A DNA stretch of 64,000 bases. Origin: a virus. Its lineage: Duplodnaviria; Caudoviricetes. A program made the position numbers and the translations under genes. The stretch spans positions 1-64,000 of IMG/VR virus record IMGVR_UViG_3300021431_000093. The stretch is one strand, 5' to 3'. The notes beneath the pieces are model-generated. The model had not been told where the DNA came from and did no database searches. It saw only the letters and a list, made by a program, of their open reading frames with translations. Positions 1,929 through 62,655 of this stretch are shown here, one piece after another (position 1 is the stretch's first letter; the number at the start of each line of letters is the position of its first letter).

Positions 1929-4900
1929 TTAAATAACATTTAAGTCTGAACGTTCATCTAATAAATAAGATGAAATCCTAGAACCTTTAAGTTGTAATCT
2001 ACCAAAACTATTCATATTTGCACCAGCCTCATGAGCTAATAATACAGACTTACCACCTTTATCACTAATAGATTCAGCATTAGTAGCATAATTATAGTGA
2101 CCTTGTAATACAGCAGTTAATCCTTTTGTATTTTCAATTAATGAGTCTGTTCTTGCTTTATACCTACTATCAGATTCATATGTAGATTTACACATATGAG
2201 TAATAACTACTATATAATCAAAGTTTGCATCTTTTAATTCATCAATATATTTCTGAACTTGCTTGAATAACTTATCTCCATCATAGAATACAAAATCACC
2301 ATAAGTCCATTCACCATCTGAATATGAACCTTGTCCATTAGGAGATGGATAACCTATACCAATTACGCCAATCCTCTTTGAACCAATCTTTGCGGTTCTG
2401 TAAGGTTTATAAACTAACTTACCATTACGGAACATATTACAAGCTGTCATACTCTTATCTTGATTTAAGATATTGATTGTCTCGTTAGGATCTCCCCATT
2501 TCCACTCATGATTTCCATAAGTTGAAGCGAAGTAATCTTTATTATTCATCTGTGTAGCTGATACCATTTCACCTGTATTTACATAATCAGTGTAAACTCT
2601 ACAAGGTCTAGACCAGTCACCACAGTCAACTAATAAGGCTTTAATATTGTTCTTTTTAAGTTTTGTTCTGTAACTATTTAAATCATCATAGTTAAATACT
2701 GGACTCAAATAGTTTCCATCTTCATCATATCCGACCCATGCTCCATGAACATCAGCTGTATATAATAAGTCAATCTCATCATACTCATTAGGATCAACTA
2801 TATCATAGTCAAATGGATCAAAGTTATTATCAATAAATGACCTTAACTCAGTGACTTTTGTATATAACTCGTCATATAAATCCATCTGTTCATTTCTATT
2901 GACACATGTAAGTGCTATATCTAATGAACTCTTTAAAGCAGGAATTTCCTTCTTTAACTCTGGTCCTCTTCTTGAACTACCAGCAGGATAATATACAACT
3001 TCTTCAATACCTGCTACCCAAGCATTATCACCTAATTTATATCAAGTATAATCTGATTTAACTTCAGATGCAAGTACATTATAATTTGAATTTTCTTCAC
3101 AATAACCGATTCGTTTACTTGAAGTTGTACTATCAGTTCTAATACTTAATAATACATCAGGAACATATAATTGATCTCTATTAATATCTTCAGGAACAGG
3201 AGATGGTAATTCAGATGCTACTAAATAATTAATACCGTTAACGTCAGCAACAAATGCTTCATCACCAATCTTATACCACGTATAACCACTTCCCTCATCT
3301 TCAGATAAAACATTGTAATAAACATTGTTCTTACAAGTTCCCATTATTTCATCATTAGTTGAAGGTCCTTTTCTGATATTGATTTCTGATCTAGTTACTT
3401 GAATCTGATTTACTTTTGTATTCCTATCTACAGGTGTTGGTTCTACCCAAACTGGAGTAGGCTCTTCAGCAGGATAATACTCTACTTCAGGAATTCCTGC
3501 TATATATGAATCAGGTCCTAAATGATACCATTTATAACCACCTGAGGTTGTTACATCTAATATATTGTAATAAACAAGATTTTCAACATAACCCATAACA
3601 GCACCACTCATTGATGGTTCTTTTCTGATTCTTACAACACCTTGCTTATTATTAATGTAAACTTGATTCTTTAAAGTATCCTTTTCAACAGGAACCGGTT
3701 CAACCCATACTTTAGCCTGTTTAAATTCTACTTCATCAACTCCAGCAACTCAAGAATTTTCACCGATATTGTACCAAGTGAAATCACTCTGTACTGACTT
3801 ATCTATTACATTATAGTACACATGATTTACACATGCTCCCATTATCTCATCTTTTGTTGATGGACCTTTTCTAATTCTTACAACTCCACGGTCATTATTA
3901 ATGAATATCTGATCTACCTGATCATTTTGTTTTACTACTTCAGGTTGTACTCAATCACTCATAATTTCTTCCGCCTCTTTAAATTCAACTTCTTTAACAC
4001 CAGCAACCCATGATCTGTAACCAATATTGTATCATGTATAATCATCTTCCTTTTCAATCTTATCTACATTGTAATAAGATAAATTTTTACATGCTCCCAT
4101 GATTTCAGATTTTGTTGATGCTGATTCTCTAATCCTAACAACTCCAGATTTATTGTTAACATAAATCTGACTTCTACTTCTATCTTCAGGTACTGTTTCA
4201 GGTTCAACTCAAACTTCTGGTTCAGGTTTAGGATAAAATTTTATTTCATCTACTCCTGCTACCCAATACTGATTTTCAAGTTTATACCAAGTATATCCAT
4301 CTGCTTCTTTAATATCAAGTACATCATAAATGCCTTGAGGACAATAAGTACCTGTATATTTTGAAGCTGATAATGATGGATTTGTTCTTACATTAATATA
4401 TTGACCTAAAACTTCAATCTGATCTTTATTCGCATCACGATCAACTATTTTACTGTTTACAGGTAAATATATAAAACCAATTAATCTACCAACACCATCA
4501 AGAGTAATCTTTCCTGGAATTAATTCAACTACACGTGATCTTCAATATTTTCAATCTCGTCTTGATTTATTAGCATCATAGTTTGATTCAGAAATTATAG
4601 CATGCGTAGCATCCAAACGTTTTTCTACAAATGCTACATGACCATAATTACCGTCAAATACAGCAACTGAACCAGTAAGAAGCTCTTGACCTTTAGCAAA
4701 TATAGTTGTCTTATATCAATCTTTAGCATTACCAAATCCACCACCGGCTCTTACCCATGGAAATCTTTCAGTTGCTTCCATAGCTTCATAGCCTCTACAG
4801 AAACAATATGTTGTACAATTTGGTAAATTAATATCAGCATACTGTTGAGCAGTATTGAATTGTCCTCCTGGTTTAAAGTATTTGTTAGGATTATTATTTG

Positions 4901-4937
4901 CGTCCACTCCTTGGACAGATAATCTCTCTAAATACAT
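1929..4937 (-). CDS. endolysin: CHAP + six SH3b-like repeats + C-terminal metallophosphoesterase domain (1002 aa, TGA=Trp)
   Basis: One frame with 8 TGA and no TAA/TAG. CHAP motifs NCTTY, GNAKDW and GHVAFVE; six Q-x-x-[VI]...[IV]R...YTWY-type repeats; phosphoesterase motifs DVH, GD, GNHE, TH and GH. Directly follows the holin. Confidence 0.85.
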
Positions 4938-7419: not shown

Positions 7420-8208
7420 TTAAAATAAAGCTACCTCTTCTATTATTGGCTCTACTACTTCATCAATTAATTCTGATCTATCTTTTCCATTTGTACTACA
7501 ATACTTTTGATATTCACACCATCTACAAGATAAGCTATATCTTTTTTCATAAGATGTAGCTTTTTTCATTAGGTTCATTCTTGCAAAGAACCAACTTACT
7601 TGTTGAGGATCATAATCAACTTTTACAAATTGTACATCATGCTTAATAATCCATTTATTGAACTTTGTTTTTAAATCTTCTTCAGATAAATCTTCATTAA
7701 GTTTCTCTGAAAATTTAGGAATCATTACGTAATACATATCTCTGATTTTATTACCTGTTAATCTTTCATAAAAATTCTTATAGACATGTATTTGTCCTGA
7801 TTTCATATATTTAGATGGACTTGCTGAAGTAAATTTAAAATCATAAAGATCATAAACTCCTTCATCTACTTTAACCAGTCCGTCAATATAACCAACAAAA
7901 TTATCAGTTAATAATTTATGCTCATACTCTGCACATTCAGGTATCTGCTCAATTGCTTTCTTCATTAACTGTTCCATCTTGAATATCTCAATATCATGAT
8001 CAGTTCCTAAAGATGGAAAATTTGACTTATAACTATTTATACCTTCCTCTATTGACCTCTTCTCAATCGCTTCATGTACAGCTGTGCCTTCAAATAAAGG
8101 ATTATCAGGTCTTAAGTCTGGTTTTGTTTGTAATTTATCTAAATACTTTAATTTATATTTAAAAGGACACTCCCACCATGTAGAAGTTGACGAAAAACTA
8201 TATCTCAT
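7420..8208 (-). CDS. PD-(D/E)XK Cas4/RecB-like exonuclease
   Basis: CP...GTAVH...GYIDGL...DFK...CRWCEYQKYC (Fe-S cysteines). Confidence 0.85.
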   Translation of the reverse strand: MRYSFSSTSTWWECPFKYKLKYLDKLQTKPDLRPDNPLFEGTAVHEAIEKRSIEEGINSYKSNFPSLGTDHDIEIFKMEQLMKKAIEQIPECAEYEHKLLTDNFVGYIDGLVKVDEGVYDLYDFKFTSASPSKYMKSGQIHVYKNFYERLTGNKIRDMYYVMIPKFSEKLNEDLSEEDLKTKFNKWIIKHDVQFVKVDYDPQQVSWFFARMNLMKKATSYEKRYSLSCRWCEYQKYCSTNGKDRSELIDEVVEPIIEEVALF

Positions 8209-8817: not shown

Positions 8818-9274
8818 AATTAATTAACTCCGAATAATTACTTTTCATAAATGTTCTTAATTTATAGGATGGAATCTCCAGGATAGGATAATCATCATTA
8901 TCAAACATTTTTCTGATATTATAAGATTTTAATCCTTCTTTTTGAATCTTTTCCATTGTTTGAACTGGTATCCATAATACTTTATCATAATCAATAAATC
9001 ATACGACAAATCCTACACGAACACCTTTTATATTTTTATATTCCAACATCTGATCATATTGTCTTAAATCAGAAAATGGAAGTGTATTACCTTGAATTGA
9101 CTTACAATCAATTATAAACATTAAAGGATATTTATAACAAATAAAGTCACCAACATTTCTCTGTCCCATATACCCTGACATTGTATCATAGAGTCTATAG
9201 CAAACAGAATCAGGGACCGATTCTACTCAGTCTGATTTAAATCGGTCCTCAAATTTCTTCCCGCGAGATGCCAT
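8798..9274 (-). CDS. recU: RecU-like Holliday junction resolvase (TGA=Trp)
   Basis: MASRGKKFED...VGDF...IDCKS...LRQYDQM; 158 aa with two TGA. Confidence 0.75.
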
Positions 9275-10386
9275 TACTGTGACACCTTAAGTTCTGGAAT
9301 AATATCAGTTACAGTTGGTTGTACACAACAAAATGCTTTACCATCACCGAAACACAATGTAACATAATCCTCTTCACATCCATTAATAATTAATGACAAG
9401 TTATCAGTATTTAATAATGCTGTGTAAGTTTCTTCAAGAGTCGGTACTTCATTTGAATATGTAACTACTTCCTTATTATCGGATGACCAGTCACTAATTG
9501 TAACACTGTCCTTTGTAAATTCAAATTTACCATAATTCTTTGTACCATCATTGAATAACATTAATCTTCCAAGAGCCTGTAATAATGCTGTCTTATTAAT
9601 TACAGCTGAATGAACATAATCTTTTGTTGCCATTCCTCTAATTGCAGTTACTGGTACACTTGATACTAAACTTGAATCCGATAATTTTGCTGTTAATACA
9701 ACTTTATCAGTACTGAATCTTACCTTCGTCTGAATTAAATCTTCAGTAACAGGATCTTGTCCAATTTCAAATTTAACTGAATCATCATCCTTAAATAATT
9801 TAAGAAGTTTAACTACCTTATCACTTAATAAGATTTTAACAGGTTTTTCAAGTGTAAAACTATTAACACATGCTCCAGATGTAAATGTAATTGCTCCATT
9901 CTCATCAATATAATAATACTTCTGAACAGGTTTAGCTGCAATACCCCTTAATAATTCTTTTGAATTATATGTGAGAATTGACTGTAAGATTGAACTTGCA
10001 ATTGACATATCATTTGTTACATTATTAATATCAATTGTAGGTAATGACATTAATTCACCATTGTTATAAATCATTGGTAACTTATAATCGCCATTACCTT
10101 TAATCTTAATAAAATTCTGTTCAGCTGTAATTTCAATTGTTTCAGATGTAATCTTACTGATCAGTGACAAGAATAATTTTGCATCAACTGCAGCTTTTAA
10201 ATTTACTTCTTCATCTAAATTAAATTTCACTGTAACATAATACTCTTTATTTGTTACATTAAGATTTAACACTGTACCATTAGCTGATAATTCCAATGTC
10301 TCTGTAAGTAATGAAGCATTTTTATTATCAATTGCTGCAAGAATATAACTACAAGAATCAATAAATTCCTTAGAGTGTAAAATCAA
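9274..10386 (-). CDS. dnaN: DNA polymerase sliding clamp (beta-subunit-like)
   Basis: 370 aa; size and alternating alpha/beta pattern fit the beta clamp; TTG start with GGAGG SD; located in the replication module. Confidence 0.75.
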   Translation of the reverse strand: MILHSKEFIDSCSYILAAIDNKNASLLTETLELSANGTVLNLNVTNKEYYVTVKFNLDEEVNLKAAVDAKLFLSLISKITSETIEITAEQNFIKIKGNGDYKLPMIYNNGELMSLPTIDINNVTNDMSIASSILQSILTYNSKELLRGIAAKPVQKYYYIDENGAITFTSGACVNSFTLEKPVKILLSDKVVKLLKLFKDDDSVKFEIGQDPVTEDLIQTKVRFSTDKVVLTAKLSDSSLVSSVPVTAIRGMATKDYVHSAVINKTALLQALGRLMLFNDGTKNYGKFEFTKDSVTISDWSSDNKEVVTYSNEVPTLEETYTALLNTDNLSLIINGCEEDYVTLCFGDGKAFCCVQPTVTDIIPELKVSQ

Positions 10387-10400
10387 TTTCTAACTACCTC

Positions 10401-11255
10401 CTAACTCCATAAATCTGTCTCAGCTATACCTATCGTTTCTATCTGTCTATATTTTTCATCAATTATTTTAGGTGTGAAATTCTTATATGGTATATGAGTA
10501 TCTTTAACACTCTTACCAATATCTATACCACCACTCATAATTGATTTTTGTTGAATATATTCACTAAGTGACATACCTTTATAACTATCACCTGTTACTG
10601 CTGGTTCCCTACAATTAACCTGTAATCCAAATGGACAAATACTTAATTTACCTCTCATATTATTATTTAAGATAATTGTCATATCTTCCATCATAGATGC
10701 TTTATAAGGTTCCATTTTCTTATCAATATCGTACACTATCATATTACCAAATCTTTGAGAATAATTAAGTGTTGACTCTTCATTAACTCCAATATAATAT
10801 GCTGAATTTGGTGGACCAGTTAAGTATATATCATTACTTGAATTAAGTAAACTAATATACATATCCATCATATCATCTATATTGAATTTTTTAATAGCTG
10901 ATATTTTATGTTCTTTATTTAAATATCTTAAACTGAATGACATAATATCATCAAATAAATATCCTATGTACTTTACTCCTAATTGTCTAGCAAAATCTTC
11001 AACTGCCAATCTTGAATACGTACATATTTTATGTGTCTTATTATAAACACCTATTGCATCTACTTGATCATAATAATCACTTCTTTCAAATGTTAAAAGA
11101 TTTTCATATTGTTTATACTCTTCAAACTTTGGATCATCTGTACTTACAACAATATAAATTGGATATTTTGCATTACACTTTTCCAATGATTTTAGTGTTG
11201 GTATAAATTCTGGTTTACCATAACTTGCTATAAAATAAGCGAAATTATTTTTCAT
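10401..11255 (-). CDS. GT-A fold glycosyltransferase, GREB1/TAGT-like, copy 2
   Basis: FIASYGK...IYIVV...DD...YLFDDI...MEDM; paralog of 11619-12470. Confidence 0.7.
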   Translation of the reverse strand: MKNNFAYFIASYGKPEFIPTLKSLEKCNAKYPIYIVVSTDDPKFEEYKQYENLLTFERSDYYDQVDAIGVYNKTHKICTYSRLAVEDFARQLGVKYIGYLFDDIMSFSLRYLNKEHKISAIKKFNIDDMMDMYISLLNSSNDIYLTGPPNSAYYIGVNEESTLNYSQRFGNMIVYDIDKKMEPYKASMMEDMTIILNNNMRGKLSICPFGLQVNCREPAVTGDSYKGMSLSEYIQQKSIMSGGIDIGKSVKDTHIPYKNFTPKIIDEKYRQIETIGIAETDLWS

Positions 11256-11583
11256 TTACTAAACCTTCAATCAACTTTTGATAATCTTCAAAATATTTAA
11301 AATAACCCTTTTCAATTGCTCTATCAGTATCAACAATTACAAGTTTTAAATCTTCTAAATAATTTTTGATATTCCTAGGAGCATCTGAATAATAATCAGC
11401 TATTTTATTAAAATTAAATTCAATTTGCCTTGTCGCTAATAACTTTAACAATTGTTTCTGTCTTGAATTAAGTGAAGTATCACAGTCAATTTTTTCTTCC
11501 CATTTAGTATACTCACTTAAATCCATAGTGTCTTCAATTGTTGCAGATGACTCATTTGGAGTATAATATACATTATTTTCCAT
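11245..11583 (-). CDS. small glycosyltransferase-associated protein, copy 2
   Basis: LKLLATRQIEFNFNKIADYY...LVIVDTDRAIEKGY; paralog of 12460-12885. Confidence 0.8.
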   Translation of the reverse strand: MENNVYYTPNESSATIEDTMDLSEYTKWEEKIDCDTSLNSRQKQLLKLLATRQIEFNFNKIADYYSDAPRNIKNYLEDLKLVIVDTDRAIEKGYFKYFEDYQKLIEGLVNEK

Positions 11584-11589
11584 AATTAA

Positions 11590-11621
11590 ATTATATCAAA
11601 TTAAAAGTAATTAGTAAACTA
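11590..11621 (-). promoter_or_regulatory. early promoter, probably giving a leaderless transcript
   Basis: TAG-TTTACT-N17-TATAAT-N6-ATG with no SD. Confidence 0.7.
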
Positions 11622-12470
11622 CTTTTTAAACCTATCACTAATTATTTTAGGACAACAGTATTCCCATTGAATCATATGATGTATTCTTGTATTGGAAGTT
11701 ACCATTGCCATAATCTTTGAACAGTTTGGATTAGTTATAACAGTGTAGAATGATTTAACATAAGTACCTAATTCAAGATATACATCTGTTAATCCACTTG
11801 CATTTGCCTGTGTTGTAACCTGATTCAATACGACGTCTGATGTAGTAAGAATTAAATAACCTCTTTGTCCATATGTACAATACATATTAACGTCTTCATT
11901 AATTCTTCCCATAAAATAGAATGGCCTATCTGTTCTACAAAAGAATGCATTCATTGCCTTTCTTTTATATTTATGTCTCCAAATATAAGCTCCAATTCCG
12001 CCTATAAAATCTCCACCTTGAGCCCATGCAATTGTAAGTGCTCCTGAAGTATCAAGGAAATCAAGATATGCTTCAATTACATCATCAATGTGTTTAATCT
12101 TATGAGCTCTTAATTTATCTCCATCCTCATATCTTGTTCTAAACTCTACATAGTCATCATCAAGTTCCAAGAAATGTGTTAAACCTAATTCAGATGCAAT
12201 CCTAAAACACTCATTTCTCGCATGTAATACTATCTGTTTACTTTTAACAATATCACATGTATCATTCTTTTTTGCTGCTTCAGCTTTATCAAAAATAATA
12301 ATGTGATCCTCACCAAACTTCTCAATGTAATGAGGTACTGTTGGATCTTCATTATCTACTACAATATACCAATCACCTGTATAACCACACTCATGTAATG
12401 TATCAAGTGTGTACATATGATCAGCTCTACCATGTGATAATATTAATACAGCAAACTTCCTATTCTCCAT
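11619..12470 (-). CDS. GT-A fold glycosyltransferase, GREB1/TAGT-like, copy 1
   Basis: ILSHGRA...YIVVDNED...ARN...ELDDDY...GRINEDVN...YVKSFY...RIHH; likely start is ATG 12470. Confidence 0.8.
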   Translation of the reverse strand: MENRKFAVLILSHGRADHMYTLDTLHECGYTGDWYIVVDNEDPTVPHYIEKFGEDHIIIFDKAEAAKKNDTCDIVKSKQIVLHARNECFRIASELGLTHFLELDDDYVEFRTRYEDGDKLRAHKIKHIDDVIEAYLDFLDTSGALTIAWAQGGDFIGGIGAYIWRHKYKRKAMNAFFCRTDRPFYFMGRINEDVNMYCTYGQRGYLILTTSDVVLNQVTTQANASGLTDVYLELGTYVKSFYTVITNPNCSKIMAMVTSNTRIHHMIQWEYCCPKIISDRFKK

Positions 12471-12885
12471 CACTATCTCCATCTGAATCCCATGACATAA
12501 TATTATTAATCTTTTCACTCATCTGAACATATCCATTTGCAATTGCATCATTAAAATCAATAATAACAAGTGCAGAACGTTCCATTAATTTCTGTAATTC
12601 CTTATTACCATGAGCATAATAATCTGCAATCTTTGAATATGTAAATTTAATATGTCTTGTAGCTGCTAACTTAAGGAAATATTTTTCTTCAGGAGATACA
12701 TTTGATTTATTAATCTCTTCAACTAATTCATCATATTTAGTTGTATCTACACATTCAGTAAGTGAAGGACATACCTCACTAGGAATATACTGAGGAATTT
12801 GAAGTTTCGTAGTATAGATCGTTTTCCTTAATTGTTCTTCTTCTTTTGTTTCTTCTTCTGTACCAAATAAATTTACTTCCTGCAT
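12460..12885 (-). CDS. small glycosyltransferase-associated protein, copy 1
   Basis: FLKLAATRHIKFTYSKIADYYAH...LMERSALVIIDFNDAIANGY. Confidence 0.8.
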   Translation of the reverse strand: MQEVNLFGTEEETKEEEQLRKTIYTTKLQIPQYIPSEVCPSLTECVDTTKYDELVEEINKSNVSPEEKYFLKLAATRHIKFTYSKIADYYAHGNKELQKLMERSALVIIDFNDAIANGYVQMSEKINNIMSWDSDGDSDGE

Positions 12886-12894
12886 ACCTGTCTC

Positions 12895-15381
12895 CTAAAT
12901 ATCTTCATGCGTATTTATTTCAAAAGTTCCATTGCACATCTGTTCAATATACTTCTCTTTAATCATTGGGAACTTCTTTTTTATTATATCAATATTCCCT
13001 GATTTTGTAAACTCTTTCTTGACTTCAGCTGAACTTTCATCAAGATACCATCTTTTAACATTATAACCATCACATTTCCATGGTACAGCTGAACACTTTG
13101 TTCTTGCTGCTTCTACCATTACTTCTGATAATCTCTTTGCTGCTCTTTCAGAATTTTCAGTGGGAGCCTCACCAAACATTTCATCATGCACCGTCGCGAG
13201 TAAATGGAACCCTAACTTATTTAATTCAGGATCATTATCTACCATAATCATTGCTAACTTTGTCATTGATGCTGCTGTACCTTGAATCCTTGCATTTAAA
13301 CATTGTCTTAATGACCTTGTAATAAATCCCTTATTATTTTTTACATTAAATCCTTCTTTAAATGCTTGCTGTGTTATATTATCTACTTCCTTTTTCCACT
13401 TTGCTTTTGACAACTTATCTTGATATTGTTTAATCTTCATTTGAGTTGCCTTATCCTCATGTGGAAGTGCACCTAATAATGGATTAAATTCATAATTATT
13501 CTTATACTTTTCATTAGGTTTTACTTCATACTCTGGAAGTTGTGCATCTGGAATATGTCTTCTTCTTCCCCACATATCAGTTACATAACCTTTTTCTCTT
13601 AACATCTTTTGAGAATCTTTTGTTAATTGATCAACTCCTTTAAATCCTTTATAAAAGTTATCAATAATTTCTTGAGCTTCTTCCAAAGACATTTCAAGTT
13701 TTTCTGCTAATGACTGTGCTCCCATTCCATATGTAATACCTAAAAGAATAACTTTTGCTTTACTTCTTCTTACTTTACCTTCAGGTTGTAATACATGTGT
13801 TACTGGATTAAATTCCAAATTATCTTCATAATTATTTTTAAAACATATACTACCAATTCGAGCATATAAATCTTCACCTCTTTCATATGCTCCAATCATA
13901 TCCTTATCATTACCTAATGCTGCTGTACTTCTCGGTTCCTGTGCTGAATAGTCACATCCAACTATTGAATATCCATCTCTCGCTTTAAATATCATTCTAA
14001 TGAACTTGTCATGAGATGGAATCTGCTGTAAATTTGGATCAGTACTACTAAATCTACCAGTTACTGTTCCGCATGGATTAAATCTTGCATGTAATGAATT
14101 ATCACTTTTTGCAAATGTTGGAATCTTATCAATAAATGAATTAATCAGAATATCTACTTCTCGCTTTTCTAACAATAATTCACAGATTTTAACATGCTTT
14201 TCATTTGCTAATATCTCTAATGCAGCTGCATCAGTTGTTCTTGGTTTTTTCTTATCTACTACAGGAACTTGTAATATATCATACAGGAGAATTGCCATCT
14301 GTGTTGGACTACCTAATTCAATAGGATCAGATAATTGTTCAACTTTAGATTTACCATAGCCATCACCTTTTTTATTAGGTTGTTTCATATTTGCATCTGG
14401 ACTTAATTTCCATTCATCTATATATGGTTGTAATCTATCAAGCTCTTCATTAATTCTACCTTGAATCTCATCCGCCTTCTTATGATATTCAATTGACATT
14501 TTTTGAGCATAATCTTTATCTATTTCAATACCTCTCAACTCCATCTTAACTACAACTGGAATAATTGGTATTTCAATATCCATTAATAACTTATAAATTT
14601 CCTCATTTTCAGGTTTCTCAAATTCTTTTAACTGATATTCATATAATTTATAAGTTTTATATGGATCAAGTGCTGCATAATATGCAAATAATTCAGGTTT
14701 AAAAATACCGTAAGGTAATCCTTTAAATAAATGTTCAATATCATATTTTTCTTCTTCTGGATCAATATGTAATTTATACTGTGCTTTTAAACCTGCTTGT
14801 TCATTTTCATCTAATAACTTTGAACCAGGAATTGTATCCCAATAAACTGGTAACATAACTTTACAAGTTGAATATAATACTTCAATATCGAATGATGCAT
14901 TTGTATATACAATCTTAATATTATTATCAACCAACCTCTGTAATTGCTCACCAATTTCCATTTCATTCAATTGATTTGATAATAATTGTTCTGTATCTTT
15001 ATTAATATGATTTACTGGAATATATGCATACTTTTCACCTGGAGTATATAAACATAATCCCATTAATTTACAATCAATCGTATCTAATGTATTATTTGTT
15101 TCTGTATCTATTGCAATAATTCCATTTTCAATTGCCTTATTAATATAATCAATAAAAGTTACACTATCTCTAATTGTAACAATATCGTCTTTATATTTAC
15201 CTAAAATTCTATAAACATCCTGCTCAATAAGTTCCATTTTTTCTTCAATTGAAACACTCTTTGATTTCAATTTCTTTTCCAATGAAACTTCTTTGACTAC
15301 TTTTTTATTTTTTGTCTTATTTAAAATCTTTTGGAGGTCTTCTTCTTTTACATTGAATTCCTCTCCCCAAAGTGAATCCAT
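12895..15381 (-). CDS. polA: family A DNA polymerase with 3'-5' exonuclease
   Basis: IAIDTET exonuclease motif; TGRFSS.DPNLQQIP; DYSAQEPR (motif A); R..AK...LG..YG (motif B); VHDE (motif C). Confidence 0.95.
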   Translation of the reverse strand: MDSLWGEEFNVKEEDLQKILNKTKNKKVVKEVSLEKKLKSKSVSIEEKMELIEQDVYRILGKYKDDIVTIRDSVTFIDYINKAIENGIIAIDTETNNTLDTIDCKLMGLCLYTPGEKYAYIPVNHINKDTEQLLSNQLNEMEIGEQLQRLVDNNIKIVYTNASFDIEVLYSTCKVMLPVYWDTIPGSKLLDENEQAGLKAQYKLHIDPEEEKYDIEHLFKGLPYGIFKPELFAYYAALDPYKTYKLYEYQLKEFEKPENEEIYKLLMDIEIPIIPVVVKMELRGIEIDKDYAQKMSIEYHKKADEIQGRINEELDRLQPYIDEWKLSPDANMKQPNKKGDGYGKSKVEQLSDPIELGSPTQMAILLYDILQVPVVDKKKPRTTDAAALEILANEKHVKICELLLEKREVDILINSFIDKIPTFAKSDNSLHARFNPCGTVTGRFSSTDPNLQQIPSHDKFIRMIFKARDGYSIVGCDYSAQEPRSTAALGNDKDMIGAYERGEDLYARIGSICFKNNYEDNLEFNPVTHVLQPEGKVRRSKAKVILLGITYGMGAQSLAEKLEMSLEEAQEIIDNFYKGFKGVDQLTKDSQKMLREKGYVTDMWGRRRHIPDAQLPEYEVKPNEKYKNNYEFNPLLGALPHEDKATQMKIKQYQDKLSKAKWKKEVDNITQQAFKEGFNVKNNKGFITRSLRQCLNARIQGTAASMTKLAMIMVDNDPELNKLGFHLLATVHDEMFGEAPTENSERAAKRLSEVMVEAARTKCSAVPWKCDGYNVKRWYLDESSAEVKKEFTKSGNIDIIKKKFPMIKEKYIEQMCNGTFEINTHEDI

Positions 15382-22895: not shown

Positions 22896-24560
22896 TTAGA
22901 TTCCAAGTAATTCCTTAAGTTCATCTAGGTCATTTACTTTACCATCTATCATATAATCTGATACGTTTTTCTTCTTATTTAATAGGTTCCACACTCTTTC
23001 ATCTATTGTACCGGTACATATTAGGTCATAGATTATTACAGGTTTTGGAGTACCTACTCTTCAACACCTATCGCATGTCTGTTCAAATTCAGCATAAGTC
23101 CATGCTGTATCAATATGTATCTCATAACTTGCAGCTGTAAGAGTTACACCTGTACCCATTTTTTGAACGGTACCTAAAAATACTTTATATTCAGGATCAG
23201 ATTGGAACTTATCTATATTATCTGATACTTCCTTATCTTCTAAATCTCCTGTACCTAATAAAGGTTTATATTGCTTTAATCTTTCTTGAAGTATGTATAA
23301 AGGTTCCTTAAAATATGAGAATATAACTACCTTTTCACCATTACTTATGATCTCTTCAACTAAATCAATAGCTCTTTCCAACTTTGTTGGTACAATATTT
23401 GATGTACTTAATACTGAAGGAGATGAAGTAGCTTGTCTTAATCTAGTTATAAGTCCTAAAAGATTTGTAGCATTTATCTTGACTTTATCTACTTCATCAA
23501 GGATACCGTTCATTATATTCTCATAGAATTTTTGTTGAGTAGTATCCATATCAATATATTCAGGTATAATAGTTTTTGGAGGTAGATTTAAAATAGATTT
23601 ATCCCTACGCAATGAGCAAGATTCTATTTCATCCTTAAGAATATTAATATTTTTATATCCGACTATTTGATTGTGACCAAACTTCTGTTCAAATACACAA
23701 TAATAATTCTTAAAGTTTGTTCAAGTTGAATTTTCTTTACCTATAAATTTCAATGGTACAAAAGCATCCAAAGGTGAATTCATAAGTAAAGTACCAGTCA
23801 TACCAACATGACGTTTACCAACTTGAGTCAATTTTAAAAGATTTTTACCTTGTTGTGATGATGGTGTCTTACTCTTATGTACTTCATCAAATAATATCAG
23901 ATCGAAATTATTTTTACTGTTCCTTATTGCATCAACTATTAAATTATCCCTTAGTGATTCTATATTTAATATTACAAAGTATTCATCTATTTTATTGTAT
24001 AATTGCTCTGCTCTATCTTTTATTGATGTATAAGATACTTTACCTTTTGAGTTAATCTTTTCACCTACAATAATACATTGTTCAGATGAGTGTCTTTGTA
24101 TTTCTTTCTTTCAGTTGTTTTTTAATGAATTAATACCACAGATAATTAAACAATGTTCATAATTTTCCTGTGATTTTAATTCTTCAGCTAGATATATTGT
24201 TTCAAGCGTTTTGCCTAATCCAGGAGGATTTAATAAAAGACAATTTGGATTATTTAATAATCATTTTATATCTTCATACTGATAATCAAATGGAGTTGTT
24301 TTATATTTGAGCGTAAGTTCATAACTTTGTTCTTGACTATCTTCCATAAATCCTAGTCTCATATTGTCAATATAAGTAAGATTATCAATCAAAAAAGCCA
24401 GCTGATTAGCTGGTACTTCCCAAAATTTTTGGGTTTTATGTCAGATAGCTCCATCTGATTGTTTTAATACATTTATAATATCCTGATTATATTCAAAATT
24501 TATTCTTAAAGATGTTTCACCTGGACATTTAAATGATTTTATTTCAGTTATATAAATCAC
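22896..24560 (-). CDS. SNF2/Rad54-family helicase (554 aa, TGA=Trp)
   Basis: GTG start; PPGLGKT, FDEVHK, MTGT, LRQ, MGTGVTL and QTCDRC[W]RVG; five in-frame TGA. Confidence 0.9.
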
Positions 24561-24889
24561 TAGAATAACTCTGTTTCATCAAGTTTTATTTTCTTAGGTT
24601 TATTTATTGGTGTACTATAATCTTCATCAAAATTTTCACCATTATCAACTTCTACATTAAATGTAAGATTAGCACGAATCTTTAATTTTGATAAACATGA
24701 TTCACAAATAAATTCTTCTTCATAATTAGGATCATCTCCTAAATAAAATTCAATTTCACCTGAAGCATTTCTTGTAATATCACGCTGTTTGCCAAAGAAA
24801 CTATCAGGCATAAATATCTCTGATGGTAAATAATTTTGTCCGCATACAGGACAACGTACCACTGTTAAATCTTTCATAATAAAAACCAC
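24560..24889 (-). CDS. Zn-ribbon protein
   Basis: CPVC...CESC; C-terminus DETELF. Confidence 0.7.
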   Translation of the reverse strand: MVFIMKDLTVVRCPVCGQNYLPSEIFMPDSFFGKQRDITRNASGEIEFYLGDDPNYEEEFICESCLSKLKIRANLTFNVEVDNGENFDEDYSTPINKPKKIKLDETELF

Positions 24890-24943: not shown

Positions 24944-24968
24944 AAAAAAAAAGAGGATTGCTCCTCTT
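24944..24968 (-). terminator. terminator at the end of the tail operon
   Basis: AAGAGGA-ttgc-TCCTCTT hairpin with long T-run on the minus strand. Confidence 0.75.
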
Positions 24969-26769
24969 AAATTTCGTGGTGTCAAGGTCAGTACTCATTT
25001 GTATTGACATCTTTTGTAACTGTATCATCTTTTGTTCAAATATCAATAACTGTTTTTCACAATCCATCGATTTTAACAAAACATTTATTTACTTTCTTTC
25101 AGCTATTACCAATTCTGATATATTTACCTGTTTTTGCTCATATACCATAATATCTTTCAGTAATACCTCAATCACTTAATGTCTTATAATTTTTAATTTT
25201 AATATCGATAGGTAATTCTATCTTTATTTCATGACCTTGTGAATCGACAATCCTCTCAGGTGGTACAGTATATGTTCCATGATATCCTTTATTAACCATA
25301 CTTGAATTATCTCAACCATCTGGCATTGTATCTAACCATCCTAGGAATACATAATCTCCACTTCTTAATTTTGATGGAGCATATTTAAGGAATGCTTTAT
25401 CACCTTGTGAATCTAATGTAGATGTATCAATATTATATGTATGAGTATCTGTTTGAATTGTACCATCATCAGTTAAATAGTATTTACATTCAACTGTATT
25501 TACATTATAATCTCATTGAGCATATAGTGTAACATTATTATTAGTATATTCAGTATTAATAGCATCATAGAAATTGTCTCCTATAATAGTATTATTCATT
25601 ATAGGCGTAATTGCTCTACTTTGATCTGATCATCCTACAAATTTATACCCTAATCTAGTTGGTATTCATAATGGAGTTTTTTGTGTATTTATCTCATATG
25701 TTTTATCTATTGTATAATCAGTTACTTTACCTAATTCAGGATCTAATTGACCGCCATTAAGATTAAATCTTATTTGATAATTTTGTTTTTCAGATACTGG
25801 GTGTATAGTTAGGTCAGACGAAACTATTGTTTGAGCATCTACAACAGAATTATTTTGATCATATCATGTATTTGTTTTAACATAACCTTTTTTATATACT
25901 GTTGGTAATGAATCTACTGTTTTATATACAATGTCACCATAATCTATGCGATATTGCTCCGTTAATGAAGTATTAGAATTTATTGTAAAAGTATCATTTG
26001 GTTGTTTACCACTTCAAGATAAAAATATATACTTTCTTGTTTGACTTGTAGATTTATCGCGTTTATCTTGAGATGGTTTTCATCCTTGCATATCAAAATA
26101 TATATACCTTGGTATATCAGTTGATGATAATGATCTATTATATGCACTTCGAACTTCTACTGATGATCCTTGTGTATATGTAGATGAAGATATTAAATCT
26201 CCACCAAAATCATCATTTTGATAATAAGAAAGCGTGTAAGAGTACTTTTTTGTACCCTTCACGCTTATACTTATAGTTATAGGCGTTAAATTAAGTGAAA
26301 ATGTTTCAGGTGTAATTGGAACTTTATATGTACCTGTTATACTTGCATATAATGAAGCTTCAAATGTTTTTGTACTTTGAGTATATGTATCTGCTACAGA
26401 TCCTGTACTTGAAGATCATGTTATTACATTTGTATAGTTTTGTAATGGTGGGTTAAAACTACTGGTTGATGATGTAAATCTAAATTGTGATCAGTTTTTT
26501 GATGAATCAGTACCTCCAGCAGTATTGACTTTATATGACATATCTGATGATGTAGTTAAAGGTGCAGTTTGGTACAAATATAATCTAGCAGGTCCAATTG
26601 TAACATTTCCAGCTGCTGTTGCAATAGCAGTAACTTCAATATATGATTTAATACTTACAGTCGTTCCAGATTTTAACGTAGTTGATAATGTTATAGTACT
26701 TGATTTAAATGTTGAACTGCTCCCATTAGGACTTATTGAACCAGAAATATTATAAGATGATGTTGGCAT
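24967..26769 (-). CDS. tail fibre / receptor-binding protein with InlB B-like repeats (600 aa, TGA=Trp)
   Basis: Read-through joins 26491-26769 and 26080-26262; PTRLGYKFVG[W], VTLYAQ[W]; C-terminal IGNS[W]KKV...KIDGL[W]K motif. Confidence 0.75.
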
Positions 26770-33633: not shown

Positions 33634-34587
33634 TTACTCTCAATTCATAACTCAACCTTCATTTTTTTGACCAGCTCAAGGAGCTACAGCTCCATCCTGC
33701 TCACCATAACTACGAGTATATGATTTTGTTTCAACTCAATCACTTCACCTTCCTGAGCCGTCAGGATTAAATAAATATATTCGTTCATATGTCCTTGTAA
33801 TCAAAGGTAATCATCACCCATCTTCTTTTTTATCAGCGCCATTTGTATATACTGAAGGTAATATAGGATTATCTTGAGATCCTGTATTATATACATCTCC
33901 TGCTCCTTCAGGTTGTCTTCCGCATTCAGTTTCAGGTATCGTTCCAGCCTCAGGATACCATCCTGAAGGTGTACCACCATCCTCTTGACCACTATCATCT
34001 CCTCCACCACCACCGGAATCAGGTCCCGAATCACCTCCACCTCCTCCTGAAGGGCTTCCATTCATATATCTTAATACATACACAGTTCCACTACCACCTC
34101 ATTCATATGATAATGAATTTCTATGATAAAAATAATAACTTGTTGATCTATATGAACCACTTGATCCTGGTCTATATGTTGGTCTAGTTAAATTTCAACC
34201 ATTTCATTGTCAATCATTATTACGTACATTACTTCAAAATGATTGATCGCCGCGATATGTCATACCAGGAGATGGTACTTCACAATCTTCATCTAAATAT
34301 AATCTACTCATATATCCACTTCCGGATACTGTACCATCATTATTAACAAAACAAACGTGGTGTTGAGCTTTACTTACAACTACATCTCCATATTTAATAG
34401 GAGCACTTCCACCAGACCCTGTATATACAACTTGTCATCCTCTATTTAATCTATCAGGTCAATCTTCAGCATTACCATTTGCAGGAGACGGTAAGCCTTC
34501 CTCCTCACATCTTACTCATACATATGTAGTACAATTAGGTAATCCACCAGCAACACTATAATATCTACTATTGTTTCAAATACCCAT
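33634..34587 (-). CDS. virion-associated CHAP peptidoglycan hydrolase (317 aa, TGA=Trp)
   Basis: LPNCTTYV[W]VRC...GNAED[W]...GDVVV...HHVCFV; Gly-rich linker; about 15 TGA. Confidence 0.8.
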
Positions 34588-60038: not shown

Positions 60039-60719
60039 TTAAAAAAATCTACTGTCAGTTGGATCAAACTTATCACCACCACCTCTTATTCTTCTTATTA
60101 TACTGATAGATGATATTTCATTTGATTTTGTTAAACTACTATTACCTTTATTTCATGTTGAATACTGATCATCCAAGAAGTGAGATCGATCATATGCAGG
60201 TAAATTTGTTTTCATATCCATACTGTCAAGTAATTTCTTACATTTTTCATTGAATACTCAATCTTCATATCCAGTACCTTGCTCAGGATCTACTGATAAA
60301 TCATAATTAACTCTATCAAATCCCCTACGAGAAATACAACTAAAATTATTTAAATAATTTTTAACATAATAATACTCTTTTTTGGTACTTTCAATAATTG
60401 ATATATAATTATCATATTCACTTTGATCTTCTGATAATTCCATATCATCATCAAGCATTATCATATAATCATACACAGAATTTAAAAAATGTTTTCTTAA
60501 AATTATTCTTGCTCCTGTTATTCCTAATTTATTATAATTAAATACAGCAATATTACCTTGTTCAACTTTAAATTCTTTTCAATTTTGAGCTACCATGATT
60601 ATTGGTAATTTGAAATGATTATTTAGTTGTCTTAATAATTTTTTTAATCTATCTATTCTTACTGACCTGCTACTAGAATCATCAGGTAAATAACTTACTA
60701 TTCCTATACATATTTTCAT
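60039..60719 (-). CDS. GT-A glycosyltransferase (TGA=Trp), paralog of 62020-62655
   Basis: MKICIGIVSY...AQN[W]...LGITGAR..LR..FLNS.YDYMIMLDDD...GYED[W]. Confidence 0.8.
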
Positions 60720-60721
60720 AA

Positions 60722-61354
60722 TTATACCTTTTTAAGATGTTCTCAATTTCAAGATATACTTCCTTCACGAGGGTAATTATAATGATAAGCATGAATACAT
60801 AATCTTGTAAATTTAGGTTTTAATTTCTCTACATCCCTCATCATAAATCAATCTTCAGCCCGCCTATATGTTGGATTAATCTCTATATTATTATTTCTTA
60901 AATACTTTAATTGTATAAAATATCTTCAGGTAGCATTACATGACATTGACATACATATAGAACCTGAATTATCATCATGATCAAGTATGAGTATCTCGTC
61001 ATCGTCATGTCTTTCATACAACTTATCTATAATAATAGAATAATTATCAGTATATACATAATCATCACTATCTATTGTTGAAATATATTTACCTGATGCT
61101 TTTTTATACATTAAATTTTTAGTATATCCAACTCCCATGTTAGACTCATTTCTCATCAGTATAAAATTTCCAAATTTATTAGCATTAATATGATATCATT
61201 TATTTAAAATAATCCAACTATTATCATTACTAAAATCATCACAGCATATAAGTTCAATATCACTTCTTTTAGGTATAGAATCCAAACACCTTACGAGTGT
61301 ATCTTGTACATTATATACAGGAACTACTATAGTTAAAATTATTACGTTTTCCAT
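60722..61354 (-). CDS. family 2 glycosyltransferase (TGA=Trp)
   Basis: TIVVPVYN...CLDS...DDFSNDNS...GKYISTIDSDD...AED[W]. Confidence 0.9.
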
Positions 61355-61356
61355 AC

Positions 61357-62019
61357 CTATGAAATCACTCCTCTCCTATTCACATCAATATGAATTCCTT
61401 CAGATTCAAAAAACTCAATTGCTTCTTTTGTTCATTTACCTCTGAATATTGCCCATATATCACCTGTATATTTATGACCTCAATCTATTATTCAGTCATT
61501 TAATGAATAATATTCATATTTTTTGCAATTATTCATTAATTCAAATGTTCATGGATCAGTAGCTACATTGATAACATCAAGTAAACTTGGTTTAAATCAA
61601 AGCTGACACATCATACTTGTTTTATATAGACCATTTACTGATCTTTTACTTAATGTATTATTTATAAATTCATCATTATGATCAAATGACTTTTCAAAAT
61701 TTACTGCTGCAATATTATCAATTGATTTCATAAACAACTCTAATTCATTAATATAATTAGAATTAACTTTTTTTCTTATAAATATATCATCGCACATAAG
61801 AAGTATATAATCATCATCAATTAATTTGACAGTGTTTCATATTCTCCTTGTTCATAAATTTAAATCTAAATTGAATTTTATTGTTCTATAATAAGGATTA
61901 GATAATGTCTCTGTTGAATAAATTATTTCAGGATGATCTGGTCAGTACTTCTCAATACAATGATAAAATAACTCTCATAAATCATTATTCTTGTCACAAC
62001 TACATACAAGTATTTTCAT
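61357..62019 (-). CDS. putative glycosyltransferase (TGA=Trp)
   Basis: ILVCSCD...L[W]...KY[W]PD...YILLMCDDIF...DP[W]TFE...IFRGK[W]. Confidence 0.7.
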
Positions 62020-62655
62020 TTATAACTCCTTTATCATTGCTCTTGTTCTGTCACCTATATCATGTTTATTAAATTGTTTATGATATCATGTTGAATTAGG
62101 ATCATTAGCTGAATCAGATACATCATTTAATGTATTTCTTATAAATAAAAATTTATTTTCAGGATACAGTTTATTCAATAACATTATTAAATACATGTCT
62201 TCAAAGAAATCACCATTTTCTGCTTCACCTTCAGGATAATCAACTTCTCTAAACATATCCTTTGATATAGCAAATAATTTCAATAATTGTGATTTATAAA
62301 TTCCATATCATTTACCAGGATGATTTTCTATTTGATCAAGGTACAAAGAAGCATCTGAACGAATTCCAACAAGTTTAGCATCATCATCTAACATAATAAT
62401 GTAATCAAAATCTGAATTAAGAAATTTATTCCTTAATTCTTTTCTAGCACCTGTTATACCTAATTTATCATAATAAAATGGAATTACATTATCATAATTT
62501 ACAGTAAAATCATTTCAATTCTGAGCAATTATCAGTATTGGTAAATTAAATAACCTATTACAATCAAGTATAGTTTTATTTAATCTATCAATTCTAATAT
62601 TTCTTAATTCTTTATCATCAGGAAAATAACTAATGATACCTATACATATCTTCAT
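62020..62655 (-). CDS. GT-A glycosyltransferase (TGA=Trp), paralog of 60039-60719
   Basis: MKICIGIISY...AQN[W]...LGITGARKELRNKFLNSDFDYIIMLDDD...FFED. Confidence 0.8.

Follow-up and report, generated by a model that had tools for sequence, protein, structure and literature searches.

Tandem adaptor-glycosyltransferase modules between the polymerase and sliding clamp genes of a tailed phage, and their predicted tether to the clamp

The window analysed here comprises the first 64 kb (64,000 nt) of a 100,004-bp viral record of IMG/VR, IMGVR_UViG_3300021431_000093 (Caudoviricetes), from a gut-type phage, which has a CheckV completeness of ~60% and a G+C content of ~29%, and in which the minus strand holds almost all the genes. 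Between the genes for a DNA polymerase and a sliding clamp, this strand carries two copies of a two-gene unit, each made of a small partner protein and a glycosyltransferase (GT) of the TAGT family. The order is PolA, partner A, GT A, a 35-nt gap, partner B, GT B and a DnaN-like clamp, and the comparisons below indicate that the locus consists of two adaptor-enzyme modules, each most probably a cognate pair, of a type that is widespread in phages. A megablast search of the locus against 50,697 phage records gave no match.

The polymerase gene (12895..15381, minus strand, as are all the features of the locus) encodes a family A enzyme with a 3'-5' exonuclease domain (Pfam DNA_pol_A, E 1.2e-75; DNA_pol_A_exo1 from residue 68, preceded by a 67-aa N-terminal extension). 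Partner A (12460..12885) is a standalone adaptor of 141 aa, followed by GT A (11619..12470), a GT-A enzyme of 283 aa counted from the ATG at 12470, which lies behind a GGAG and is the most likely start; alternatives are found at 12482 and 12518. Partner B (11245..11583) is a 112-aa paralogue of partner A, and GT B (10401..11255) is a divergent GT-A enzyme of 284 aa. The product of the next gene (9274..10386), a DnaN-like beta sliding clamp of 370 aa, matches the processivity factor phrog_947 (E 1.5e-15), while the N and C domains of DNA_pol3_beta were matched weakly in Pfam, below the cut-off. In both modules the partner and GT genes overlap by 11 nt (ATGnnnnnTAR), an arrangement indicating that adaptor and enzyme are translationally coupled; overlapping partner/GT stop and start codons are also present in two related loci, L021 and L023. 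None of the four genes contains an in-frame TGA, and NCBIfam had no model for either partner or either GT.

A preliminary description of this DNA proposed a tandem duplication of the partner-GT unit between polymerase and clamp, and this was confirmed, as the open reading frames (ORFs) lie exactly where they had been placed and the paralogy is significant for both components. Partners A and B align over 93 aa with an identity of 34% (E 2e-18), and the shared string noticed earlier, LATR..F..KIADYY..LVI.D..AI..GY, falls inside this alignment. The two GTs align over 204 aa with an identity of 24% (E 2e-14), and the strings pointed out earlier in them (ELDDDY versus LFDDI) face each other there as ELDDDY and YLFDDI. 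Their placement among TAGT enzymes of GT-A type also held: both exceed the PF20691 cut-off of 27.5 bits (GT A, 114.9 bits, E 6.1e-33; GT B, 38.1 bits, E 2e-9), the model of GT B has a GT-A fold, and both match phrog_842 (E 4.7e-63 and 1.1e-14, respectively).

From N- to C-terminus, partner A consists of a disordered N-terminus (MQEVNLFGTEEE), an acidic linker, the motif YTTKLQIPQYIPS and a helical core (residues ~31-110). In the alignment of the partner family an N-terminal xx[DN]LFG is followed by an acidic run, the motif KYTxKvxIPQYxPS and the helical core AATRHixFxYxKIADYY...SALVIIDxxDAIxNGY. Partner B keeps the YxP and the helical core, and is devoid of the N-terminal LF motif and the acidic linker. 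The AlphaFold2 (AF2) partner model has predicted local distance difference test (pLDDT) values above 90 in the core and below 60 at the termini. Fold searches with the core returned generic helical likeness only (Foldseek E-values of at least 1.5), VIA-align against 48,161 chains gave Z scores of at most 4.0 and no PDB fold match, and the ESM Atlas search gave no usable match. Hits of the partner profile to PDB sequences were rejected, being confined to columns of the ParB nucleotide-binding domain (NBD) contributed by fused homologues.

Partner A matches the C-terminal half alone of phrog_620 (positions 119-215 of 217, E 8.7e-9), annotated in PHROGs as "ParB-like partition protein". Both partners align with the C-terminal ~110 aa of ParB_N-containing proteins that adjoin TAGT genes, and partner B matches the same ParB-like proteins by tblastn (E 1e-8 to 2e-10). 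Neither partner matches Pfam, the ParB/Srx NBD (PF02195) included, and no ParB_N was found anywhere in the 100-kb record. The homologues form 1922 near-length clusters (77-247 aa; the top matches, of 124-149 aa, are without a Pfam domain) and 244 longer ones, nearly all of which bear PF02195. Because of its homology to the C-terminal half of ParB-like proteins beside TAGT genes, the partner is not an orphan; the alignments show it to be a ParB-like C-terminal domain protein that has lost the nucleotide-binding (DNA-clamping) domain of ParB. ParB-like proteins have been reported to accompany phage DNA-modifying enzymes (10.1101/2023.12.21.572611), and one of them activates a phage 5mYOX (thymine dioxygenase) on dsDNA in a cognate-specific manner (PMC13229309).

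The DDD triad is intact in GT A, which has 5700 homologous clusters. The triad of GT B reads FDD: at the first position, where at least 90% of the family have Asp, the whole B clade has F/Y. This clade is also devoid of the RKAMNxFF and GTYxKSFY...RIHH segments and has a different C-terminal third. Because of this fixed F/Y and the remodelled C-terminal third the two copies have probably diverged in function, in agreement with the early suggestion that they may act differently. GT B keeps the other two Asp residues of the triad and all the strictly invariant residues of the family, and its AF2 model is confident (pLDDT 87, predicted template-modelling score 0.86), a combination that agrees with a functional enzyme whose donor or acceptor has changed, and not with decay; on these features GT B looks active. 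Foldseek related this model to GT-A enzymes at probability 1.0 (template-modelling (TM) score ~0.45, 8-16% identity), the nearest solved folds being the GT2-type hyaluronan synthase, TarS and TarP, and the TAGT profile found no solved relative by sequence. The B clade is a rare one: clustering at 50% identity gives 3 full-length representative clusters.

The association of each partner with its own GT is kept when the modules change places. In L007, L008 and L010, whose polymerases are only 35-40% identical to that of the window, the same four genes lie between polymerase and clamp in the swapped order partner B-GT B-partner A-GT A, with the pairs intact, while a near-identical relative, L012, has the module order of the window and a partner A that is 100% identical. 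Every partner B orthologue (L007, L008, L010, L012 and L023) has a B-type GT downstream of it, and trees built from 66 partner/GT pairs placed the B-type partners in one exclusive clade and the B-type GTs in another, each with support of 1.0. Module identity and cognate pairing are considered highly probable from these genetic comparisons, which also show that adaptor and enzyme co-diverged as a pair since an old duplication retained by the whole phage clade. The preliminary description spoke of a dedicated, uncharacterised partner for each enzyme; the first attribute stands, given the intact pairs after the module swap and the parallel B clades, and the second has to be given up in view of the homology to the C-terminal half of phrog_620.

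The usual cassette, as judged from 41 standalone-partner loci sampled from IMG/VR, contains one partner and one to three GTs, and two partners were found only in the L008/L010 phage of this sample. The position polymerase - partner - GT - clamp is conserved in dozens of loci. In two closer relatives the slot is occupied otherwise: in L021 it reads polymerase, partner A, GT A, a CofD-like gene, an NTP_transf_3 gene, a gene for a 327-aa GT-A-like protein, and clamp, and in L023 it reads CofD-like gene, NTP_transf_3 gene, partner B, GT B and clamp; since these two loci fill the same slot differently, the interval between polymerase and clamp is a variable modification cassette. These additional genes (L021:10159-13633, L023:3-931) encode a 595-aa CofD-like protein of the 2-phospho-L-lactate-transferase family and an NTP_transf_3 nucleotidyltransferase, and the 327-aa protein of L021 starts with MPDIISLFEIQEE. 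They could form a side branch of the modification pathway that handles a phospho group or an unusual donor. L012 contains a 254-aa HNH-type gene (L012:4598-5362), probably a homing-endonuclease insertion, between partner A and the polymerase, whose C-terminus is slightly longer there.

Among isolate phages, tblastn detected the partner-GT pair in Lactobacillus phages c5, phiLdb and jlb1, in lambdoid phages of E. coli and Salmonella, in 190-kb Vibrio phages, in Nocardia phage NTR1 and in the haloarchaeal virus HHTV-2. In the small temperate phages the partner corresponds to the C-terminal ~110 aa of a 240-265-aa protein with an N-terminal ParB/Srx NBD, whose gene overlaps that of the GT and is usually followed closely by the terminase genes. 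This ParB-fused pair, which Escherichia phage vB_EcoS-666R9 carries at L005:4560-6276, matched 1580 of the 5426 complete E. coli genomes (~29%), 889 of them with at least 80% coverage; in RefSeq the ParB part is named ynaK or ParB/Srx family N-terminal domain-containing protein, and the GT is named hypothetical. Four sequences from Logan assemblies (P0185, P0167, P0161 and P0190) have GT and ParB-like parts in one reading frame, GT first, with three different in-frame deletion variants that may reflect real heterogeneity or assembly chimeras. Their use as a single-chain surrogate for predicting the complex was rejected, as they are deletion- or chimera-like, P0185 is without the conserved GT C-terminus, and the mixed alignment was misaligned.

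The 35-nt gap between GT A and partner B carries a promoter-like site (11590..11618), TTTACT-17-TGATATAAT, which has 10/12 matches and a TG extension, the whole reading TTTACT-17-(TG)ATATAAT. Sites of the TTTACA-17-TATAAT type are also found ahead of the polymerase gene and of the gene for the single-stranded DNA-binding protein (SSB). The promoter noted earlier between the modules is thus present as a site; however, promoter-like sites in the region numbered 47 against a shuffled expectation of 51.5, and because this count is not above chance the predicted promoter is plausible but not demonstrated. The -10 box stops 6 nt ahead of the ATG of partner B and a Shine-Dalgarno sequence is absent, which makes a leaderless partner B transcript possible; partner B may be translated from such a leaderless mRNA or solely by coupling to GT A.

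Each of the two modules carries one terminus that resembles a clamp-binding peptide. Partner A starts with MQEVNLFG and GT B ends with ETDLWS, PolA itself starts with MDSLWGEEF, and partner B and GT A have no such terminus. The sequence QL[SD]LF is reportedly the canonical beta-clamp-binding motif (Dalrymple 2001). An [LIM][FW] dipeptide occurs within the first 12 residues of 109/120 standalone partners, typically as [FV][DN]LFG followed by an acidic run. The tails of GT B orthologues are DLWS (P0361, from locus L023) and QLSLF (P0362), other tailed TAGTs end in GLF or DLW, and none of the 194 untailed TAGTs ends in this way. In L008 and L010, where GT B is tailless, the motif is found on partner B instead (MALFEV). 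All the related loci with a full-length polymerase (22/22) have the motif at the N-terminus of PolA, co-varying with that of the partner (PolA/partner pairs MPLF/MPLF, MDLF/MDLF, MALF/MALF and xLWGEEF/NLFGxEE). A DnaN-like gene was present within 10 kb of 26/41 standalone partners vs 0/39 ParB-fused ones (Fisher 9e-11), at standalone-partner loci mostly directly after the GT.

Terminal motifs in this genome exceeded the numbers expected from shuffles (3 vs 0.14 and 2 vs 0.01), and are also borne by a Cas4-like PD-(D/E)XK nuclease (7420-8208), which ends with EEVALF, and by a 109-aa Zn-ribbon protein (24560-24889), which ends with DETELF. The termini of the partner and GT B models are of low confidence in AF2, consistent with flexibility. 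A glucosyltransferase bound to a replication clamp has a precedent in phage T4, whose alpha-GT binds the gp45 sliding clamp (Sommer 2004; PMC13216743). Together, these motifs lead us to predict a clamp tether through terminal LF/LW peptides, with the balance tipping slightly in its favour.

Several observations weigh against this interpretation. The motif patterns were defined after inspection of the data and the compared loci are phylogenetically related, and the contrast of 26/41 vs 0/39 partly reflects that between large lytic and small temperate phages, because the hidden Markov model of the clamp was built from this clade. Enrichment of C-terminal LF/LW across the proteomes of clamp-encoding loci was not significant (2.6% vs 1.8%, p 0.34). 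Since the ParB-fused homologues carry FGF or WGL at the aligned internal position, the motif is not unique to clamp-associated forms and could serve another contact. No clamp-type terminal motif was found in module B of L007, and the N-terminal motif is absent from the standalone partner of Vibrio phage Va1. The idea that every cassette GT has its own tether was rejected, as the partner-less extra GTs of related cassettes have no terminal motif. Two further points bear on the functional side: no source of a hydroxylated base was found, which leaves DNA glycosylation unproven, and any order in which GT A and GT B would act is purely inferential.

The acceptor of the sugars was approached through the enzymes that would prime the base. 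Neither Tet_JBP (PF12851) nor Thymidylat_synt (PF00303) had a match at E <= 1 in the 100-kb record, which extends to the whole record the observation, made earlier for the window, that no TET/JBP or hydroxymethylase gene is visible. The same two families were absent from relatives with the same double module rated 93% and 100% complete, the latter being G003, an 82-kb genome that uses the standard code (95.5% coding, table 11). Pfam and PHROG scans of the early genes of the record identified a Cas4-like nuclease, SSB, primase, DnaB, helicase loader, initiator, RecA and topoisomerase, and no nucleotide-modifying enzyme; the 44 non-structural ORFs of G003 matched in Pfam only clamp loader, RecA, SNF2, DnaB, primase and lysins. 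No methyltransferase, deaminase, 2-oxoglutarate oxygenase or deoxynucleoside monophosphate kinase was seen in either set.

Four complete isolate phages with the pair (c5, jlb1, vB_EcoS-666R9 and Va1) were likewise devoid of Tet_JBP, and among the three searched for thymidylate synthase (c5, vB_EcoS-666R9 and Va1) it was present only in the 195-kb Vibrio phage Va1. Because the record and the complete relative have no Tet_JBP or Thymidylat_synt, hydroxymethyl-pyrimidines, cited in the preliminary description as the known targets of such enzymes, are unsupported as the acceptor, with the proviso that divergent priming enzymes may escape the Pfam models used. The sugar may go to a base primed by a divergent enzyme, straight onto a canonical base, or to a protein.

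The rest of the record provides context for these genes. Full-length RecA (L019:6215-7255, genome 88215-89255, E 9e-107) and a bacterial-type topoisomerase with Toprim and zinc ribbon (L019:14403-16253, genome 96403-98253, E 5e-106) are encoded beyond the window. A clamp loader (PF13177) was not found in the 100-kb record itself, and relatives do encode one. The late (virion and lysis) genes, among them 1929-4937, 24967-26769 and 33634-34587 of the window and many others, require TGA to encode Trp; a single gene may hold as many as 16 such codons in frame, and the replication genes have none. Four recoded GT-like genes form a separate cluster among virion genes (60039-62655, from the ORF list in genetic code 4), of an expression class unrelated to that of the replication-linked pair.

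A model in which two clamp-docked adaptor-GT modules modify nascent DNA, module B being devoted to a different or second sugar, is the most likely mechanism and one to which we give about equal weight for and against. In this model each module would present one beta-clamp-binding-like peptide on a flexible terminus, EVNLFG at the N-terminus of partner A and ETDLWS at the C-terminus of GT B, and these peptides would dock the GTs on the phage's own DnaN-like clamp, encoded next to them. Newly made duplex DNA would then be glycosylated at the fork or just behind it, the clamp taking over a role that the ParB NBD may play in small temperate phages that do not encode a clamp. Through its helical core the partner would bind its cognate GT and activate it on dsDNA, much as ParB activators do for the thymine dioxygenases of phages. 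The first sugar would come from GT A; GT B, in which the donor-site triad and the acceptor-side C-terminal third are altered, would supply a different or second one. That the two act in sequence is a tentative proposal that we regard as doubtful. A version that dispenses with a hydroxymethyl-pyrimidine precursor, the clamp-riding adaptor-GT attaching a sugar to a canonical base or to the product of an unrecognised enzyme and the second module elaborating it, seems unlikely.

The closest competitor to clamp-docked modification is classical hypermodification, in which the GTs would glycosylate 5-hydroxymethyl-uracil or -cytosine, the priming enzyme would be encoded in the missing ~40% of the genome or be too divergent to be recognised, and the partners would be plain ParB-type activators whose LF/LW peptides have nothing to do with the clamp. 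The TAGT family does include the beta-glucosyl-hydroxymethylcytosine alpha-glucosyltransferase of T2/T6 and the base J glucosyltransferase (PMC13390438, PMC13216743), the record is merely ~60% complete, and thousands of phage 5mYOX-like sequences are missed by PF12851 (PMC13229309). Nevertheless, both priming families are missing from the record and also from the 93%- and 100%-complete relatives with the double module, the scans of early genes and of the 44 G003 ORFs found no base-modifying family, and the small complete phages c5, jlb1 and vB_EcoS-666R9 have no Tet_JBP, nor c5 and 666R9 a Thymidylat_synt, so we regard this explanation as fairly unlikely. The failure to find a source of hydroxylated base would suit a protein target. 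This could be the partner itself, whose A form has Ser/Thr-rich and acidic flexible segments, or else a DNA-binding protein, of the replisome or of the host, to which the clamp gives access; the TAGT member GREB1 does O-GlcNAcylate a protein, the oestrogen receptor (PMC7968844). This is improbable, however, as the characterised phage and kinetoplastid members act on DNA, and the pair, whose fusion or linkage to ParB NBDs joins it to DNA clamps, lies in the replication or packaging modules of very different phages.

Module B might instead be a decaying or non-catalytic duplicate, with GT B a regulatory or scaffolding pseudo-enzyme and module A alone modifying DNA. The Phe at the first position of the triad, the two missing segments and the Pfam score of merely 38 bits are what would be expected of such a protein, but the retention of every strictly invariant residue, the persistence of the gene and its F/Y change in phages with 35-40%-identical polymerases, the confident and complete GT-A fold and the co-conservation of partner B make us assign it a low probability. 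Finally, the resemblance of GT B to polysaccharide and teichoic-acid enzymes of GT2 type (hyaluronan synthase, TarS and TarP) could point to cell-surface or virion GTs located in the replication module by chance. These fold matches are generic at the TM score and identity given above, whereas the family assignment is TAGT, the position between polymerase and clamp is kept in dozens of loci, and, in contrast to the late GT cluster at 60039-62655, the genes are of the early class without TGA, all of which makes a chance location very improbable.

What GT A and GT B have in common with characterised TAGT enzymes (those of T2/T6, base J and the 5mYOX pathways) is the GT-A fold, conserved Asp residues (in GT B two of the three in the triad), a PKII C-terminal motif and the context of phage DNA metabolism; they differ in that no hydroxymethylase or dioxygenase was found even in complete relatives and that each GT has its own adaptor, and GT B further differs in its FDD, its remodelled C-terminal third and its clamp-motif tail. 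Tandem GTs that add successive sugars are known from T6 and from the NEB metavirome pathways (10.1101/2023.12.21.572611). The ParB activators associated with 5mYOX (PMC13229309, PNAS 2026) are similar in being small partners encoded beside a DNA-modifying enzyme in hypermodification clusters, and their cognate specificity probably has a counterpart in the pairing seen here; however, the NBD, essential in ParB176, is absent here and the client is a GT rather than a dioxygenase. Homology of the partner was shown to the ParB-like proteins beside TAGT genes. Temperate phages of the lambdoid and Lactobacillus groups carry a pair of a YnaK-like ParB protein and a TAGT in which partner core and GT family are the same as here and the genes overlap, but there the partner bears the ParB NBD and the pair occurs as a single copy just upstream of terminase, in phages without a clamp.

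The T4 alpha-GT resembles the proposed system as a DNA GT linked to the replication clamp for co-replicative modification, the binding being a prediction here, and the second T4 enzyme, beta-GT, does not bind the clamp. In T4 the enzyme has a GT-B fold and binds directly to a clamp of gp45/PCNA type, whereas here the enzymes are of GT-A fold, the clamp is of DnaN type, and the tether would be the adaptor in module A and the C-terminal tail in module B. Ligands with the QL[SD]LF motif (Pol III alpha, Pol IV, Hda and MutS) have in common with the termini described here a short hydrophobic LF peptide on a disordered terminus with a polar or acidic residue before it, and the tail of one GT B orthologue, QLSLF, matches the consensus exactly. 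The differences are that the leading Gln is here mostly Glu, Asp or absent, that Trp may replace Phe, and that the clients are a DNA-modification adaptor and a glycosyltransferase.

The combination of a partner and a TAGT is among the commonest unstudied gene pairs of phages, with more than 1,900 partner and 5,700 GT clusters, and the partner domain is without a Pfam model or a solved relative. The locus described here, in which two diverged cognate pairs adjoin, provides a natural experiment, and the absence of a priming enzyme from complete genomes sharpens the question of the GT substrate. If the prediction is true, a clamp tether in place of the ParB DNA clamp would explain why ParB-like proteins accompany DNA-modifying enzymes, and a sugar added without a hydroxymethyl-pyrimidine would represent a new DNA glycosylation chemistry and a new use of the beta clamp, replacing the ParB CTPase as DNA tracker. 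Identification of the GT substrate could bring to light a new DNA modification that bears on the escape of phages from restriction and CRISPR and on enzymatic tools for DNA labelling.

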